Shown here: positions 16,366-22,612 of the stretch, one piece after another
Numbering within the stretch: position 1 is the first letter of the stretch
Layout: the number at the start of each line of letters is the position of its first letter
From: a virus
Taxonomy: Duplodnaviria > Caudoviricetes
Direction: 5' to 3' (one strand)
Length of the DNA stretch: 64,000 nucleotides
Virus record (IMG/VR): IMGVR_UViG_3300046733_000629
Notes under the pieces: generated by a model
What the model saw: the letters and a program-made list of their open reading frames with translations, nothing else
Told to the model about the DNA's origin: nothing
Database searches by the model: none
Made by a program: the position numbers and the translations under genes

Positions 16366-17283
16366 ATGAATTATTATGAACTAGAACCGGAAAACAATCA
16401 TTTCCATGATGTTATTATTGATGTAACACATCAGTGCAACATGAACTGCAAAAACTGCTACATACCCAACAGAGATATCCCAGATATGGACATAGACAAG
16501 ATGTTGGATGCTATTGCCAGGTTTCCTAAACGTTGTAACATACGTATTATAGGTGCAGAACCCACAGTGCGTAATGATTTACCAGAGATATGTCGTGCTA
16601 TCAAAGCTAGTGGACATAGACAAATACTATTGACAAATGGATTACGATTAGGTAACAACGCTTATGCACAAAAACTACGTGCTAGTGGATGTAATCATGT
16701 GTATCTAAGTTTAAATGGAGTTGATAATGATGACTGGTATGAGGAAATAGACGAGCTTCGTTGTGCTAAACGCAAGCTACAAGCACTAGATAACCTACAA
16801 AAGAATCGTTTTATTATACAAACAGGTACTATTATTGTACAAGGAGTAAACGAAACTGCTCCAGAAAGACTGTTACACACACTCAAACGCTATGATGTAA
16901 CCAATGCAGTGATACGAATCAAGAACGTAGGACAGCTAGGCCGTCATATGAATGGTGTAGAAGACAATATAAAGATGGAAGGACTCATGCAATTGTGCAG
17001 TGATCAAATGAATGTAAGCATGGATTACTTGCGAGAATGGCGAACCAAGCCAATTGTTGATACACTAGATCCAGAATTAAACAGTTTTATGTTTCCATTA
17101 GATCCTGCTAGTGCAGATAAACCTATTAATCGTAGTGGGTTATGGGTTAAAATAGCTAATTGGGATACTGAGAACGAAGAACAAATCCCTAGTCCAAACA
17201 GCGAAAGACGTGGTAGACTAACAGAAGACTTTAAAGTAGCTCCGTTTTTCGAACATGTTAAAATGAACGAAGGCGGATACTAA
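16366..17283 (+). CDS. Radical SAM protein, MoaA-like core without SPASM
   Basis: CNMNCKNC, IIGAEPT, LLTNGLRL. Confidence 0.85.
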   Translation: MNYYELEPENNHFHDVIIDVTHQCNMNCKNCYIPNRDIPDMDIDKMLDAIARFPKRCNIRIIGAEPTVRNDLPEICRAIKASGHRQILLTNGLRLGNNAYAQKLRASGCNHVYLSLNGVDNDDWYEEIDELRCAKRKLQALDNLQKNRFIIQTGTIIVQGVNETAPERLLHTLKRYDVTNAVIRIKNVGQLGRHMNGVEDNIKMEGLMQLCSDQMNVSMDYLREWRTKPIVDTLDPELNSFMFPLDPASADKPINRSGLWVKIANWDTENEEQIPSPNSERRGRLTEDFKVAPFFEHVKMNEGGY

Positions 17284-17310
17284 GTTAAAGCCTCCCTATA
17301 TAATCAATTA

Positions 17311-17601
17311 TTAGTCTGCTATATCAACAGTAACAGTGTTGTCACCGTCTGCTGGAAATCCGTCTGAATCTTTTTCATTGTTGTTGTATCTTGGTGCTCC
17401 TGCTGCCCAAGCATCATATGTTGCTTGATCTGCAAAAGTAATAGTTCTAGTCACTGAGCTCGGTGTTGCTAGAGCGTATACCCAAGTAACGCCATCAATG
17501 AATCCACTGGTTGGAGCATCATATGCTTCGCACCATGCTTCAGCTGAATCAAATGTTCTACCATCTGTTGCAGTCATTGTTTGTACTTTAGTTATAGCCA
17601 T
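17311..17601 (-). CDS. Small Ala/Thr/Asp-rich late protein (96 aa)
   Basis: Own ATAAATA (17641-17647, minus) and AAGGAGA SD. Confidence 0.75.
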   Translation of the reverse strand: MAITKVQTMTATDGRTFDSAEAWCEAYDAPTSGFIDGVTWVYALATPSSVTRTITFADQATYDAWAAGAPRYNNNEKDSDGFPADGDNTVTVDIAD

Positions 17602-17660
17602 CGTTGGTTCTCCTTAAGGCAACCTTATTGGTTGTGTATGTATTTATCCGACAGTAGTGG

Positions 17661-17718
17661 TTTTTTTGCTAGTGTAATAACCCTAGACTACAGCGAAGCT
17701 CTGCTTAAAAAATTTTTA
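17661..17718 (-). repeat. Left copy of a ~60-bp imperfect inverted element
   Basis: Minus strand: TAAAAATTTTTTAA-GCAGAGCTTCGCT-19 nt-CTAGCAAAAAAA; matches 21019-21078 on plus. Confidence 0.7.
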
Positions 17719-17839
17719 GACCCCTTATAGTACGCTTTACAGTACAAAGACCTACTGTGGGTGTGACAATGATTTATGGTAGCATATATAGTCTTGATAA
17801 TGCAGTAAATGGTTCTTAAATGACTAGTACTAGTATGTG

Positions 17840-18241
17840 TTACAGTGACAGTAGATAACGTTTGTATTCATCTAAACTCATTGATTCCTTAAACAGTCGC
17901 GGATACCAATCGCTTATGTAAGTCCAACTATCTCGCAGTCTATCTTCCGAAGGTATTGTATCCCAACTAAAGTCACGCATTAGTGACAGTGCAACCCTGT
18001 GATCTAAACCGCATAGTGGACTGTATACTACACGTTCTAACTGATATCCAAAGTCATCACAACATAACTGATAGTCTTGCGGCGCACTTACGCTAAAGTC
18101 ATGTACAGCATACACAGGTAATGAATCCAAAAGAACTCCTTTATACTGTACAAGTATATCGTCGTAACTTCCAGCATCAGTAGCAGACGACAACCCTAGT
18201 ATTAAGTTGTGTATGCAGTCATGTCCTAGTATGTGTATCAT
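17840..18241 (-). CDS. Hypothetical protein (133 aa), late
   Basis: Perfect TATAAATA (18248-18255, minus) 6 nt before the ATG. Confidence 0.6.
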   Translation of the reverse strand: MIHILGHDCIHNLILGLSSATDAGSYDDILVQYKGVLLDSLPVYAVHDFSVSAPQDYQLCCDDFGYQLERVVYSPLCGLDHRVALSLMRDFSWDTIPSEDRLRDSWTYISDWYPRLFKESMSLDEYKRYLLSL

Positions 18242-18575
18242 ATAGCGTATTTATAGTATAGAGGTGGTATATAGCAAACTTGGTAAAAAAATGCTAGCAA
18301 AAAAATTTACTATACAAACTGACGGTGAGACCCAAAGTTTTACACTGTACACGTATAGTATAGACTATAGTAGTAGTAACTGTAACTCAAGGTCTAAGCA
18401 TATCCCTTGTACGCACAGTGCAAGCACAATGCGTTGTGGTTTTCCCTAGTGGATATAATGAGAAATGGTTTGTAGCAGATCTGAGAAAAAATTGAGATTT
18501 TTGTTGGGCGCCACTCAAAATTTTCACCAGACCACAGCTGCACCATTAGACAACCGTGATCTAGCCAGTGAAAAA

Positions 18576-18743
18576 TTATTCTGATTTAATTAATTTTAAT
18601 GCACTTTTTGGTAGTCTATAAGTGCTACCTGGGCATTCAAACACAGTAACCCAGACACCTTCAACTCTGGTTACTGTTCCTGTTATGCTTCTACCTGCAG
18701 TGTTAGTGAACTGTACACTACTATGCTCTTTAATAGCGGCCAT
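18576..18743 (-). CDS. 55-aa small beta-barrel (SH3/KOW-like) protein, missed by the track
   Basis: MAAIKEHSSVQFTNTAGRSITGTVTRVEGVWVTVFECPGSTYRLPKSALKLIKSE with an AAGGAGA SD; resembles the C-terminal half of 18752..19024. Confidence 0.65.
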   Translation of the reverse strand: MAAIKEHSSVQFTNTAGRSITGTVTRVEGVWVTVFECPGSTYRLPKSALKLIKSE

Positions 18744-18751
18744 ACTTCTCC

Positions 18752-19024
18752 TTATACTATAGTTAACATATGTGCTGGCACCTTCCAGTTACCTATAGAG
18801 GTCTCTACAGTAACATTCTTGATAGCCTTCTTACGCACAGTACCTTGTACTACTGTACCATTACGTTGTGTGAACTCTACTACATCTCCTATAGCAATAG
18901 TACGCAATTGTGTACGGCTTACATAGCTTCTACGCAGTGCTACTTCTTCCATGATGTGTACTAGCTCATCCTGGTTCATAGTTCTGATGTGATTAACAGT
19001 ATCATTCATTGTGTTTACAGTCAT
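18752..19024 (-). CDS. 90-aa early protein with SH3/KOW-like C-terminus
   Basis: AAGGAG SD and consensus promoter upstream; IAIGDVVEF...GTV...VTVE...WKVPAHML. Confidence 0.7.
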   Translation of the reverse strand: MTVNTMNDTVNHIRTMNQDELVHIMEEVALRRSYVSRTQLRTIAIGDVVEFTQRNGTVVQGTVRKKAIKNVTVETSIGNWKVPAHMLTIV

Positions 19025-19056
19025 AGCGTGTACTCCTTTATTGTTTAATATACTAT

Positions 19057-19085
19057 ATTATAGCATAAGATGTCTTGGTTGTCAA
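19057..19085 (-). promoter_or_regulatory. Consensus sigma70 early promoter with a palindromic spacer
   Basis: TTGACA-ACCAAGACATCTTATGC (17 nt)-TATAAT. Confidence 0.85.
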
Positions 19086-19102
19086 CCCCTTATTCATAGG
19101 TA

Positions 19103-19134
19103 AGCCCCACAACACGGTTAAACATTGTGAGGCT
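19103..19134 (-). terminator. Hairpin, possibly a terminator
   Basis: AGCCTCACAA...TTGTGGGGCT 10-bp stem; no clear U-tract. Confidence 0.35.
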
Positions 19135-19223
19135 CGTATAGTTAGTTAAGGAGTCAACCCATAACACTTGGATTGCTAACCGTTAGTTGTACTGAGGCGA
19201 TCTAGCCAACCCCTCGATTGTAC

Positions 19224-19430
19224 TTATTTTGCGTCCTGATCTGGCAACGTAGGGGCTTTAACACGGCTGCGATTCCGTGTCCATTGGCCTTGAGGAATGT
19301 CCTCTGTACGTGCTCCAGGTTCGCATACGGTGATAACACCACCGCGGGCTAGATATTCTGCTACAGATTCACTAACATTTTCAATGCTTTGAATCTTTGT
19401 TTTTGATTTCTTTTTTGGTAATTGTTTCAT
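19224..19430 (-). CDS. Small hypothetical phage protein
   Basis: VAEYLARGGVITVC motif; abuts the upstream gene. Confidence 0.65.
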   Translation of the reverse strand: MKQLPKKKSKTKIQSIENVSESVAEYLARGGVITVCEPGARTEDIPQGQWTRNRSRVKAPTLPDQDAK

Positions 19431-19431
19431 A

Positions 19432-19755
19432 TTATGATCCTACTGTTAGGTCAAAGGTTTTTGATACTGGATCGAATTCTAATTGCTCTACATATACACC
19501 GTGATATCCACAACTATACATTAGGTGACCTGCGGCCGCTAGGGCCTCACTTGTGTTGATCTTACCGTCTACTACGCTAACAGGAAGGTCGCTTTCCCAA
19601 TTAAGGAATACATAATCTTGCTTGGGAGGCCATTCATTGTTGTCGGCCGCACGGTAATCAAACATGTCTGTTCGCATCTTATACACACCATCAGGCGCTG
19701 ACGTTGAATCTGATTCACAATCCCAAACCATATTCTCTACAATCTGTACACTCAT
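19432..19755 (-). CDS. Hypothetical early protein (107 aa)
   Basis: AGGAG SD and promoter at 19792-19820. Confidence 0.7.
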   Translation of the reverse strand: MSVQIVENMVWDCESDSTSAPDGVYKMRTDMFDYRAADNNEWPPKQDYVFLNWESDLPVSVVDGKINTSEALAAAGHLMYSCGYHGVYVEQLEFDPVSKTFDLTVGS

Positions 19756-19791
19756 AGACGTTCTCCTAAACTTTTTATTAACTATACACTT

Positions 19792-19820
19792 ACTATACTA
19801 TATCTATTTCGCTTTGTCAA
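19792..19820 (-). promoter_or_regulatory. Sigma70 early promoter with the -35 flanked by an 8-bp inverted repeat
   Basis: TTGACA-17 nt-TATAGT; CTATTTCG (19804-19811) and CGAAATAG (19822-19829). Confidence 0.8.
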
Positions 19821-19833
19821 CCGAAATAGTACA

Positions 19834-20025
19834 TTATTGTGCAGGATGACCCAGGAATAATTCGCTCCAAACCATATCAAGTGTTTCGAATATAGCGTCT
19901 TGATTGTGTACAAGCACATCCAAATTTTGATTGATACAGTATAACAAACTAACCATAGCTACCATCCACGATACCAGTGCGATCACCAATACAGTATAAG
20001 CAGTATTTGTTATGATATTATTCAT
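19834..20025 (-). CDS. Small membrane protein
   Basis: GGAG SD before ATG 20025; one long hydrophobic helix. Confidence 0.6.
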   Translation of the reverse strand: MNNIITNTAYTVLVIALVSWMVAMVSLLYCINQNLDVLVHNQDAIFETLDMVWSELFLGHPAQ

Positions 20026-20049
20026 CTTTTTCTCCAAATCGTCGGCCCT

Positions 20050-20112
20050 TTAGTTGACTATCCACCATAGAATAATCCATGCAATAAAGAACCAAATGAT
20101 CTTCTTTAACAT
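20050..20112 (-). CDS. Possible 20-aa leaderless hydrophobic peptide (MLKKIIWFFIAWIILWWIVN)
   Basis: ATG lies 7 nt downstream of the -10 of the 20119-20147 promoter. Confidence 0.35.
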   Translation of the reverse strand: MLKKIIWFFIAWIILWWIVN

Positions 20113-20118
20113 ATGTAT

Positions 20119-20147
20119 AATATAACACTATTCCACCCCTTTGTCAA
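20119..20147 (-). promoter_or_regulatory. Sigma70 early promoter preceded by CAAGATATTTCGG
   Basis: TTGACA-17 nt-TATATT. Confidence 0.75.
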
Positions 20148-20319
20148 CCGAAATATCTTGGTATTTGAATAACAAATGTTCAGGTATATCTAACCCATTA
20201 TACTGATAATAATAACGTAACACAGTATTACGGTTATGTGATATAATCAATACATTACCATCCTTGTATAGCGTATAGTAGTTACCACAATCTCTTATAG
20301 TATAGTGTGTATTATCCAT
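20128..20319 (-). CDS. Hypothetical Tyr-rich small protein
   Basis: TAAATA 5 nt before ATG 20319. Confidence 0.5.
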   Translation of the reverse strand: MDNTHYTIRDCGNYYTLYKDGNVLIISHNRNTVLRYYYQYNGLDIPEHLLFKYQDISVDKGVE

Positions 20320-20654
20320 ACTACTATTTAACAAAATACCGTGTATATAGGCTGTTTTAGACGTAGTAGGGAATAGGTATTCCCTTATAGTATACTTACA
20401 CTAAGAAGTTCATGAAACACCTTAGAAAACCACTGTAAGTCACTGATACTGTTGACTTATTTGAGCCATAACCATGCCTTTAGAACCGTATGACGCGATA
20501 TATGGGTGATTTCACCACCATTATCTTTTAATCGAGCCCTTCAATCACCACGGTTTTAGAAAAATTTACCACTATTCTGCACTATGCTAAAGGGAACCGG
20601 TATTCCCCCGAATCTGCGTATACGCAAGCTACTACGGTGTCGGCCGGCTACTAT

Positions 20655-20697
20655 GCTAGTACTACTAGGGTTATTGTTACACACGCTAGTACTACTA
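20655..20697 (+). repeat. 13-bp direct repeat GCTAGTACTACTA, two copies 30 nt apart, within a CTA/TAC-rich tract
   Basis: Copies at 20655-20667 and 20685-20697; partial ACGCTA(G/T) copies continue to about 20760 and at about 21000. Confidence 0.75.
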
Positions 20698-21018
20698 TAC
20701 GCTATACTACTATATGCATCTATACTACACGCTAGTTCAAGTTCACTACTGTATACGCTAATAATATAGGTTGACAGATCACTCAAGTATAGTAGTATGT
20801 ACGACTGGGCTGTAATAAAGGTTATAGTATCTATATCCGTAACAGTAGTAATGCGTAAGCAACACATGCCTAGATATATTTTATAAAGCGAGTAGAGGTA
20901 GGCTCGCACAACATAGGTACTGGTCTATGTACACTTTATTATCAGTATGTAACAACGCTCTGGGCTTACACGGAACGTTATTGAGGAAAGTTACTCCACA
21001 CGCTAGCAACAGAGGTTG

Positions 21019-21078
21019 TAAAAAAATTTGTTGCAGAGCTCCGCTAGGTATCTTGTTAGAGTAATAAACTAGCAAAAA
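21019..21078 (+). repeat. Right copy of the ~60-bp imperfect inverted element
   Basis: TAAAAAAATTTGTT-GCAGAGCTCCGCT-23 nt-CTAGCAAAAA. Confidence 0.7.
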
Positions 21079-21140
21079 TCACCTGTGAAAACAGTTAAGT
21101 TGTGGTTAATTAGTCTGGGTTTTATTGGGTTATTTAGAGG

Positions 21141-21169
21141 TTGACAAGCAAGACGTCTTATCGTATACT
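21141..21169 (+). promoter_or_regulatory. Consensus sigma70 early promoter with a perfect palindrome in the spacer
   Basis: TTGACA-AGCAAGACGTCTTATCG (17 nt)-TATACT; AGGAG SD downstream. Confidence 0.85.
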
Positions 21170-21203
21170 GTAAGTATAGTTAATAACAAATAGGAGATAC
21201 AAC

Positions 21204-21530
21204 ATGGATAAATTTATTAAAGAAGATTTCAATTACGATGGTATGTACTTAACCTATGGAACTGATAGAAAGTTTGTAGCTAGATTCAAATACATCAAGT
21301 TTTGTGCTAGTTTTAAGAGCTTTTTAATTAAAAACTTTACACAGAGTGAATACTTTTCAGCTTATGATTCAGGTACTAGTCCATTGGATATACTAGAAAG
21401 CAAGGGGTTTATGACTCCACAAGCCAAGAAGTTGTGTAAACAAAATGGTATGACAGCTACACAAGAAAACTATAAGATATGTTTACATGCACAGTTTAAA
21501 GCATGGGAAACTAGTAGGGAGGCGGCGTAA
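21204..21530 (+). CDS. Hypothetical early protein
   Basis: First gene after the consensus promoter; strong SD. Confidence 0.75.
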   Translation: MDKFIKEDFNYDGMYLTYGTDRKFVARFKYIKFCASFKSFLIKNFTQSEYFSAYDSGTSPLDILESKGFMTPQAKKLCKQNGMTATQENYKICLHAQFKAWETSREAA

Positions 21531-21531
21531 C

Positions 21532-21738
21532 ATGGGAATGTACAGTTTAATCGAAGATAATGTTGAGAAGTTCTACAGCATTGCAGAAGAATCAGTGGGT
21601 GAATGCGAACACCTTAATCAGTTTATAGCTAAGATGAAACCACACACCAATCTGCTACAAGGAAGCGGAGATGAAGATCATTTTGAAGATCTTTGCTATG
21701 AGATGTGGAACGAAAAGTGGAGCAAATACAATGCTTGA
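21532..21738 (+). CDS. Small acidic early protein (68 aa)
   Basis: GGGAGG SD before ATG 21532, shorter than the track ORF. Confidence 0.65.
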   Translation: MGMYSLIEDNVEKFYSIAEESVGECEHLNQFIAKMKPHTNLLQGSGDEDHFEDLCYEMWNEKWSKYNA

Positions 21739-21829
21739 TTTTATTGCAGAGATAGCACTAAGAGCGGCCGTTGCAGTAGCGATTCTATTTGCAATAGGTT
21801 TCGTTATTAGTTTATTCAGTGGATTCTAA
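21731..21829 (+). CDS. 32-aa single-TM peptide, missed by the track
   Basis: MLDFIAEIALRAAVAVAILFAIGFVISLFSGF; exactly fills the gap between two genes. Confidence 0.5.
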   Translation: MLDFIAEIALRAAVAVAILFAIGFVISLFSGF

Positions 21830-21832
21830 ACA

Positions 21833-22612
21833 TTGGAATACCTAACCAGTTCATTTGAAGACTTTAAAACGTTTGTACAAGAACAGTTTGTTCCTGCATG
21901 CGAATCACGAGGTTTACAACCACTATTAAAGGAACTAGACACTAACAAGCTAGCGGCAGTTCGCAGTCAAAACGGCGTTAAAACAGAAGTAAAATTAATA
22001 CGAGGCAACCTAAGTCTTATTGCTGGCTACGGTAATAGTCCTGAAGAACGTGATGTAATGCGAGAAGAATTAGCCAAACATGGACGTGAATGTATGCCTG
22101 GACGAGCATTGTTGCAGATGCCTTACAGAGATTTAGATGACTATTTCCTATTCCTAGAACAGTTGGAAGAAATAGATGCAATAGCTAAAGCAACACGTGC
22201 TAGTCAATACTTTACAAGAAGCTATGATCCATTAATGATTGCTAATAGGTATTTCTATGCAGTCCAAAACAAAGATCAAGATTTAATTAACATGAGCAGA
22301 ACTCTGTTGAGTGCAGATGGATACGACAGTGACATTGCTATTAACAAACCCAGTGAAACTAGAACCTACAGAGAACACGTGGTTCCTTGTATTAAGATAC
22401 ACACTGAGATTATGCGACGAGTTATGCTAACAGAAACCACACCCGAAGCTATAGCACAGTTTATCAAAGATAACCTAAAGATTGCTTATATAAGTGTAGC
22501 AGATAGACAACGCATTGACTTTGAATATAAATGGTTAACAGACATGCCCAAGGATTGGAATTGGGGTGACAACATAACCGCTAGACTAGACGAAACCAAT
22601 ACCAAATACTAG
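21833..22612 (+). CDS. Hypothetical protein with a REHVVP motif (possible degenerate HNH/His-Me nuclease fold)
   Basis: 259 aa, TTG start; YREHVVPC motif. Confidence 0.5.
   Translation: MEYLTSSFEDFKTFVQEQFVPACESRGLQPLLKELDTNKLAAVRSQNGVKTEVKLIRGNLSLIAGYGNSPEERDVMREELAKHGRECMPGRALLQMPYRDLDDYFLFLEQLEEIDAIAKATRASQYFTRSYDPLMIANRYFYAVQNKDQDLINMSRTLLSADGYDSDIAINKPSETRTYREHVVPCIKIHTEIMRRVMLTETTPEAIAQFIKDNLKIAYISVADRQRIDFEYKWLTDMPKDWNWGDNITARLDETNTKY

Follow-up and report, generated by a model that had tools for sequence, protein, structure and literature searches.

Two conserved elements in inverted orientation bracket the small early-gene block of a Caudoviricetes phage lineage

In a 64,000-nucleotide stretch of viral DNA (IMG/VR record IMGVR_UViG_3300046733_000629, Caudoviricetes; this whole stretch is called the window below), two diverged copies of an element of ~58 bp, which we refer to as A and B, lie in opposite orientation ~3.3 kb apart at the ends of a block of small early genes. 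Three related lineages, assembled from independent metagenomes, keep both elements in the same places and in the same orientation, and because the pair is held nearly unchanged while the adjoining DNA diverges, A and B can be taken as real cis-acting sites. On this comparative evidence they constitute a conserved, lineage-specific pair of cis elements, for which a functional role can be proposed. The role that we favour, at a probability of only about 0.3, is that of paired protein-binding boundary sites which would act on duplex DNA as a roadblock or an insulator, possibly in a looped arrangement.

The inverted pair and its conservation

Both elements are built from the same blocks in the same order, as a previous, sequence-only reading of this DNA had described. 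Read on the plus strand, A (21019–21078) comprises an A7T3 tract, the 13-nucleotide (nt) core GCAGAGCTCCGCT (21033–21045), a 23-nt spacer and a CTAG...CTAGC part (CTAGCAAAAA); read on the minus strand, B (17661–17718) comprises an A5T6 tract, the 13-nt core GCAGAGCTTCGCT (17692–17704), a 19-nt spacer and a CTAG...CTAGC part of its own (CTAGCAAAAAAA). Together with the base that precedes it, the core of B forms a 14-bp imperfect dyad, AGCnnAG|CTnnGCT, which is also that of A; the shared form, (A/T)GCnnAGCTnnGCT, adjoins the A-tract/T-tract. Across all copies of both elements, differences in the core are confined to the four non-symmetric nn positions of the dyad, a pattern drawn from two variable positions that is only suggestive of dyad recognition. 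The junction within the tract moves while its total length is fixed, at 10 nt in A (A7T3 or A6T4) and 11 nt in B (A5T6 or A6T5).

The resemblance of the two elements stands well clear of background: aligned locally with gaps, A and the reverse complement of B score 42, whereas the best inverted match between dinucleotide-shuffled halves of 17000–22000 averaged 27.2 (standard deviation 2.4, maximum 36) and reached 42 in 0 of 200 shuffles. The 13-nt core occurs at only two places in the 64 kb, namely A and B, and scans with either element returned no third copy in the window. A profile built from A and B together recovered only orthologous copies in the window and the 51 loci that make up the comparison set.

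The surroundings of A and B agree with the claim that both are aimed outward at a promoter. A lies directly 3' of a non-coding unit, X, and ~60 nt upstream of a sigma-70-type promoter (21141–21169), while B ends 18–20 nt upstream of the late-type promoter GATAAATAC (17647) of a 96-amino-acid (aa) gene; each element thus follows the end of one transcription unit, which is a 133-aa gene in the case of B and unit X in that of A, and precedes the next promoter of the same direction. Early-type transcription does diverge here: the promoters at 20147, 19820 and 19085 point leftward, those at 20771 and 21141 rightward. Neither a consensus scan nor a search for TTGACA-N17-TATAMT found a sigma-70-type promoter within A or B, and neither element contains a hairpin/T-run terminator, the T-run of the tract lying at best 6–7 nt from a 3–4-bp stem.

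To follow the pair beyond the window, a pattern scan of 241 million metagenome records was run, which gave two orthologous contigs and one chance match (L021, rejected as a carrier because the pattern falls inside a coding region), and exact-protein look-ups added 23 contigs from ENA, JGI and Logan assemblies (handles beginning with L denote loci of the comparison set; all evidence on orientation, ends and RNA is from assembled contigs rather than raw reads). The related lineages are ~93% (L029–L034), ~82% (L023, L035, L036, L041–L048) and ~75% (L022/L024, L025, L040) identical to the window. All contigs that reach the locus have B upstream of the 96-aa gene, then an invariant island, C, and then A upstream of the 72/108-aa genes.

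Between the window and L024, A is identical at 58 of 60 positions, and its flanks at 9/60 and 28/60; B is identical at 52/58 and its inner flank at 30/60, while the outer flank of B is taken up by the promoter and leader of the 96-aa gene, which are themselves conserved. Across the three lineages the flanks are ≤50% identical while the elements are conserved, and conservation stops abruptly at either edge, spanning TAAAAA to ACTAG. The least conserved part is the terminal CTAGCAAAAA block, which reads CTAGTCAAAA or CTAGTGAAAA in some copies of A, and in L045 (2988–3034) a 12-nt deletion takes ACTAGCACAAA off the outer end of B, which may be an assembly error or a sign that this end is dispensable. 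The two elements evolve separately, the core of B being changed in L024 (GCTGAGC) and that of A unchanged. As judged from these alignments, both A and B are under purifying selection with sharp boundaries. The expectations that the element would be found in relatives and conserved there were therefore borne out, as was the general proposal of a cis-acting landmark at this place, both elements being sharply bounded conservation islands in all three lineages; the three specific roles suggested for the landmark gained no such support.

Outside these lineages the element was not encountered. Pattern scans of IMG/VR did not find it, where the relatives are distant ones only, and look-ups with the 259-aa and 96-aa proteins returned none there; a near search of GenBank phages with 17000–22000 had no match, and distant searches of the same phages with A alone and with 20300–21200 gave chance 20-nt matches at E ≥ 2 or nothing. 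In distant relatives reached through the radical SAM protein (L001–L008) or the 108-aa protein (L009–L020, L049–L051) the elements are absent and the neighbourhoods differ, and in four of the distant relatives no comparable inverted pair rises above background. What these distant relatives do have in the place that A occupies here, immediately ahead of the promoter for the 108-aa homologue, is an ordinary hairpin/T-run terminator. Given the collections searched, the element appears to be neither mobile nor widespread.

Paired boundary sites and the alternative readings

In the reading that we favour, one ~58-bp cis-acting DNA site is present in two diverged copies, A and B, and a sequence-specific protein, most likely a dimer, would bind both as duplex DNA, reading the dyad beside the fixed-length A-tract/T-tract, at which the DNA is expected to bend. 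The pair would mark the outer limits of the region that sends early-type transcription both ways, B standing past the last leftward gene and just ahead of the separately promoted 96-aa late gene. The bound protein would then serve as an orientation-independent boundary, a roadblock or insulator that would stop outgoing transcription from entering the next unit, and the two occupied sites might be bridged into a 3.3-kb loop. Protein binding, boundary function and looping are all steps that we infer, and the fullest version, in which A and B anchor a protein-bridged 3.3-kb loop that would insulate the fast-evolving block of early genes and non-coding RNA from the late units around it, seems to us improbable. 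The comparison that points to duplex DNA comes from L024, where the promoter of unit X reads the other strand of A, yet the sequence of A and its orientation toward the 108-aa gene are unchanged, as would suit a function that does not hinge on the strand transcribed.

Several systems share the layout of such a pair. Like lambda OL and OR, which are joined by a long-range loop through CI, A and B are inverted regions a few kilobases apart that bracket genes and face outward; OL and OR, however, overlap promoters and carry repeated 17-bp sub-sites, whereas A and B are clear of promoters, contain one dyad apiece, and are only proposed to be bound and looped. Tus-Ter and the mitochondrial mTERF sites can likewise form an opposed pair around a region, a likeness of layout and of proposed mechanism; there a bound protein stops a polymerase, which for A and B is a proposal only.

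A number of observations weigh against boundary sites of this kind. Searches against Atlas, Pfam and PHROG recognised no DNA-binding domain, and hence no candidate for the binding protein, among the small proteins of the block. The core and the third block are not equally spaced in A and B (a difference of 5–6 bp), which is awkward if one complex touches both sub-sites. Within each orthologue group the whole 58 nt is conserved, spacers included, beyond what a simple operator would need, and the B copy of L045 lacks 12 nt of its outer end. The two substitutions seen in the arms of the elements (A>G and C>T) would leave G-U pairing in place when read outward, which is equally compatible with an RNA-based role. 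Finally, an RNA-library contig (21007–21198, depth 2.9, with DNA carry-over possible) crosses A into the next unit, and if it is a transcript there is at least some read-through at A; a second run search, with 20800–21100, returned no run containing half of that stretch.

The same arm substitutions lead to the first alternative, in which the elements would act within the outward transcripts, either in antitermination, as do nutL/nutR of lambda and putL/putR of HK022, or as sites of processing or stability. Each element would combine an unpaired A/U tract with a conserved box and with a hairpin that GCURG/CUAGC closes. The layout is indeed that of the nut and put sites, an inverted, multi-part pair around the point of early divergence with each member downstream of outward promoters, and the arms GCT(A/G)G and CTAG(C/T) can pair in 9 of 9 distinct copies, the sole two changes leaving G-U pairs on the outward strand, where the opposite strand would have C-A mismatches. 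In window-type genomes, moreover, TTTGTTGC of A pairs with GCAACAG in the flank, a pairing that three transitions preserve. The nut and put sites, however, act as folded RNA in one fixed sense, whereas A and B gave no significant fold and no clear covariation: neither strand folds better than shuffles (z −1.5 to +0.9; on the outward strand, −0.64 for A and +0.92 for B), and the changes in the arms are one-sided wobbles, none of them compensatory on both sides, against a shuffle control that is uninformative. Rfam has no match to the elements even at E ≤ 1. The only promoter seen to be aimed at A in L024 reads it in the opposite sense, yet A there is identical at all but two positions, and the abundant transcript of the 96-aa gene seems to start downstream of B, where an RNA contig ends at 17624. 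The phage is taken to be lytic and T4-like, and we know of no N-like factor for it. The resemblance to nut pairs, as to OL/OR, is one of layout only, and we regard a role in RNA as unlikely.

T4-like phages shuffle their small early genes by means of repeated promoter-terminator cassettes, and a second alternative takes A and B as homology anchors at which co-infecting phages would exchange the variable early block, conservation being a by-product of recombination. The region is certainly hyperplastic: a 72/73-aa gene between two promoter-cassette copies is present or absent by lineage, a 200-aa gene with its own TATAAATA abuts A in L024 in the place that unit X takes in the window, in one DNA contig of run X1 an additional 1170 bases stand between repeated copies of the cassette (joint 21178->21138), and assembly breaks accumulate just inside both elements. 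All this agrees with the shuffling mediated by PeSL and PmSL cassettes in T4-type phages (Arbiol et al. 2010, PMC2839356; Comeau et al. 2014, PMC4122927), the PeSL being a sigma-70 promoter with a stem-loop terminator in many copies (PMC2839356, PMC4122927). A and B resemble PeSLs in being short, conserved intergenic motifs of a hyperplastic small-gene region, beside genes that come and go; unlike them, they have no promoter and no stem-loop terminator and occur in two copies only, which are inverted, so that three of the three PeSL features examined are missing. It is the early promoter cassettes of the region that are PeSL-like, with a shared spacer and leader and with genes lost or gained between repeated copies, and gene gain and loss here would accordingly be recombination between these cassettes, as described for PeSLs. 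The rearrangement joints observed are all at promoter cassettes and none at A or B, 58 nt is short for efficient homologous exchange, the inverted resemblance of A and B is left without an explanation, and the edges of conservation are far sharper than recombination tracts would leave. We therefore think homology anchoring rather unlikely.

A bidirectional origin had also been suggested for this interval. The structured RNA of unit X might run into A and form an R-loop, as at T4 oriF/oriG or in ColE1, or A and B might be signals on opposite strands like ssiA/ssiB of RSF1010. X does abut A, its promoter fires toward A in both genome arrangements and its predicted structure is conserved, and the pair is inverted, on opposite strands, in a region where A/T tracts and palindromes cluster. 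At T4 oriF/oriG the unwinding element lies directly downstream of the promoter; here the promoter of X is 215–270 nt from A. Neither A nor B is especially AT-rich outside the 10–11-nt tract, B has no X-like unit, the two elements are 3.3 kb apart, and the repeated ACACGCTAG boxes next to A are dispensable, being replaced in L024. The cumulative GC skew, which is weak evidence in T4-like phages, tracks gene strand and shows no inflection. An origin-associated role for A and B seems quite improbable.

Two further proposals of the sequence-only reading fare worse. That the elements are crossover sites at which a site-specific recombinase inverts the 3.3-kb block, as the layout of an inverted pair with a 12/13-identical core and the likeness to Mu gix, P1 cix and Salmonella hix (also inverted pairs flanking ~3 kb) might suggest, is already largely refuted and strikes us as very improbable: seven full-span assemblies (the window, L024, L025, L035, L041, L045 and L046) are collinear, a comparison in which rare variants are invisible, ~twenty junction-spanning contigs from independent samples have one orientation, the DNA contigs of two runs over 17300–21400 are collinear with an insertion between promoter copies as the only joint, A and B differ by indels between blocks and evolve separately (the core change of B in L024 is not in A), and the 26-bp sites, adjacent recombinase gene and mixed orientations in populations that mark gix, cix and hix are not seen, there being no recombinase family in the gene tables ~7–10 kb either side of the segment, in keeping with the absence that had been claimed. 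That A and B delimit a packaging or terminal region or, going beyond that reading, are the terminal inverted repeats of an inserted mobile element, is scarcely credible: the segment that they end is compositionally distinct (GC 0.39–0.40 vs ~0.34) and several contigs end within 100–600 nt of them, but these ends are scattered through the variable DNA inside the elements with no fixed base and many contigs run through, the segment has genes and promoters typical of the phage itself and shares its promoter cassette with the DNA outside, there is no transposase, inspection by eye shows no direct repeat at the flanks that would mark a target duplication, the element occurs at this locus only in the viral and metagenome collections searched, and relic repeats would not outdo their flanks in conservation.

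Three narrower candidates were tried and rejected. An ATAAATA box is found downstream of B, of island C and, in L024, of A. A and B are nevertheless not a common upstream component of late promoters: nothing similar precedes the 17 further ATAAATA sites of the window, and A in the window has no late box beside it. The motif TTTTTGCTAG is MotA-box-like and, by eye, has no −10 element conserved at the proper distance. A mini-ORF (open reading frame) across A was discarded, also by eye, since its substitutions are non-synonymous and B has no start codon.

If it is true that A and B bind a protein that limits early transcription or loops the block, the pair would be a new kind of control point in T4-type regulation, and would offer a way into the question of how hyperplastic regions and the DNA next to them remain compatible; if the elements are homology anchors only, the finding is ordinary. 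We know of no description of a two-copy, strongly conserved element without promoter or terminator that frames such a block, nor, to our knowledge, has a sequence-specific domain boundary of this loop-insulator kind been described in T4-like phages. The phage lineage recurs in seawater and virome runs of 18 studies, and the element is therefore open to synthesis and reporter study without culture.

Genes, promoters and non-coding units of the segment

The T4-like label fits this phage because strong TTGACA-N17-TATAAT promoters are abundant in the window (14, against 2.8 expected) and (G/T)ATAAATAC boxes precede genes in the style of T4-type late promoters. The window has a G+C content of ~35% and contains no tRNA genes and no Rfam matches; the large ORFs have matches to a structural protein of phage virions, to several radical SAM enzymes, and to a carbamoyltransferase and a TctA transporter. 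The segment between the elements had been described as gene-poor, which is correct in relative terms: its ORF cover is the lowest in the window (0.70–0.73 by a permissive greedy cover, vs 0.95 overall). It is nevertheless about half coding, with a share of 0.52 when only the seven ORFs also called in relatives are counted. A(5+)T(2+) tracts are enriched here, with 6 of the 14 in the window falling within 17707–21030, 5% of its length.

The seven genes, called in all related contigs, form a leftward block (17840–20334, minus strand) that encodes proteins of 133, 55, 90, 68, 107, 67 and 68 aa, two of which belong to large clusters of viral hypothetical proteins. Near-consensus early-type promoters serve the block at 20119–20147, 19792–19820 and 19057–19085 (minus strand), and the 133-aa gene has a late-type promoter at 18247–18254 (minus strand). 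Outside the elements, the unit faced by B is the 96-aa gene (17311–17647, minus strand), which has a strong Shine-Dalgarno sequence in addition to its late-type promoter, and the unit faced by A is the 108-aa gene with its early promoter cassette (21141–21530, plus strand), where TTGACA-N17-TATACT carries AAGACGTCTT in the spacer and is followed by the leader GTATAGTTAATAA.

This cassette is one of a shared type that consists of GGTTGACAAGC, a palindrome AAGAnnTCTT in the spacer, TATAMT, the same leader and AGGAG. Copies lie in the window at 21141–21203 (plus strand), 19024–19085 and 19756–19820 (both minus strand), and in relatives (L009–L012, L015, L017, L018 and L023/L024/L035) upstream of the 108-aa and 72-aa genes; the palindrome is kept in L009–L011, and L012, L015, L017 and L018 have the promoter and leader without it. 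From its position the palindrome looks like an operator inside a promoter. AAGACGTCTT contains one perfect 8-bp word that is MetJ-box-like; since the centre varies, the palindrome is probably not a MetJ site. The 72/73-aa gene that lies between two cassette copies is found in L023, L024, L035 and L041–L048 and is absent from the window (window 21100–21140 vs L023:4470–4790, L024:7787–8085 and L035:1990–2310). In virome run X6, contig depth is 118–208 to the left of ~20128 (break at ~20099–20128) vs 18.5 in a 10-kb contig to the right. This step was rejected as a genome end and is probably due to co-occurring mosaic strains, because depth is a per-contig figure and the break coincides with the promoter cassette at 20119–20147.

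Several non-coding stretches between the genes are conserved. Unit X (20771–21018, plus strand) has a sigma-70-type promoter at 20771–20798 and a predicted non-coding transcript of ~215 nt that ends at A; its start, ACGACTGGGCTGTAATAAAGG, is invariant, and in its predicted structure nine pairs are maintained through changes on both sides. Rfam has no match to X, and on the strength of the modelled fold we regard the unit as a candidate for a new small RNA of phages. The L024 lineage has X inverted and on the other side of A (L024:8085–8348, plus strand), still pointing toward it. The 9-mer ACACGCTAG has three exact copies on one strand within 330 nt (20681–21006, plus strand) and none elsewhere in the window; these boxes are kept in L023 and L035 and absent from L024, where a gene replaces that DNA yet A stays.

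Island C (18285–18325, plus strand; GGTAAAAAAATGCTAGCAAAAAAATTTAC...) is a run of 41 nt, A7-T-GCTAGC-A7T3, invariant in all lineages with both flanks variable, and lies ~30–70 nt upstream of the leftward late promoter at 18254. It holds the further CTAGCAAAAAAATTT (18294–18308) that had been listed as a third occurrence; the match is real, but the parts that C has in common with A and B are only GCTAGCAAAAA and an A/T tract, and it is not a copy of the element because it lacks the core. Island Y (20440–20655) is conserved, non-coding and situated where transcription diverges, with the palindromes GGGAACCGGTATTCCC (present also at 20368), TGCGTATACGCA and CGGCCG. A consensus RNA fold in Y is not significant (z −0.4 and −0.8), and its sequence makes it a candidate protein-binding control region. 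On the leftward strand, two more conserved non-coding stretches have consensus folds far below those of column-shuffled alignments, 18380–18575 (z −3.6, 5 sequences) and 19090–19225 (z −8.0, 3 sequences), and are likely, from these predictions, to be stem-loops or small RNAs of the leftward transcripts.

Two side observations concern individual genes. One of the 68-aa early proteins (19224–19430, minus strand) has a sub-threshold match to the SutA RNA-polymerase-binding domain (PF20661, E 4.7e-4, 19.9 bits vs a cut-off of 29.3) and may be a candidate takeover protein that binds the host polymerase. The 133-aa gene (18241–18254, minus strand) and the 200-aa gene of L024 (8409–8439, plus strand) both have TATAAATA 5–6 nt before the ATG, without a Shine-Dalgarno sequence, and their mRNAs would, on this spacing, be leaderless or nearly so.

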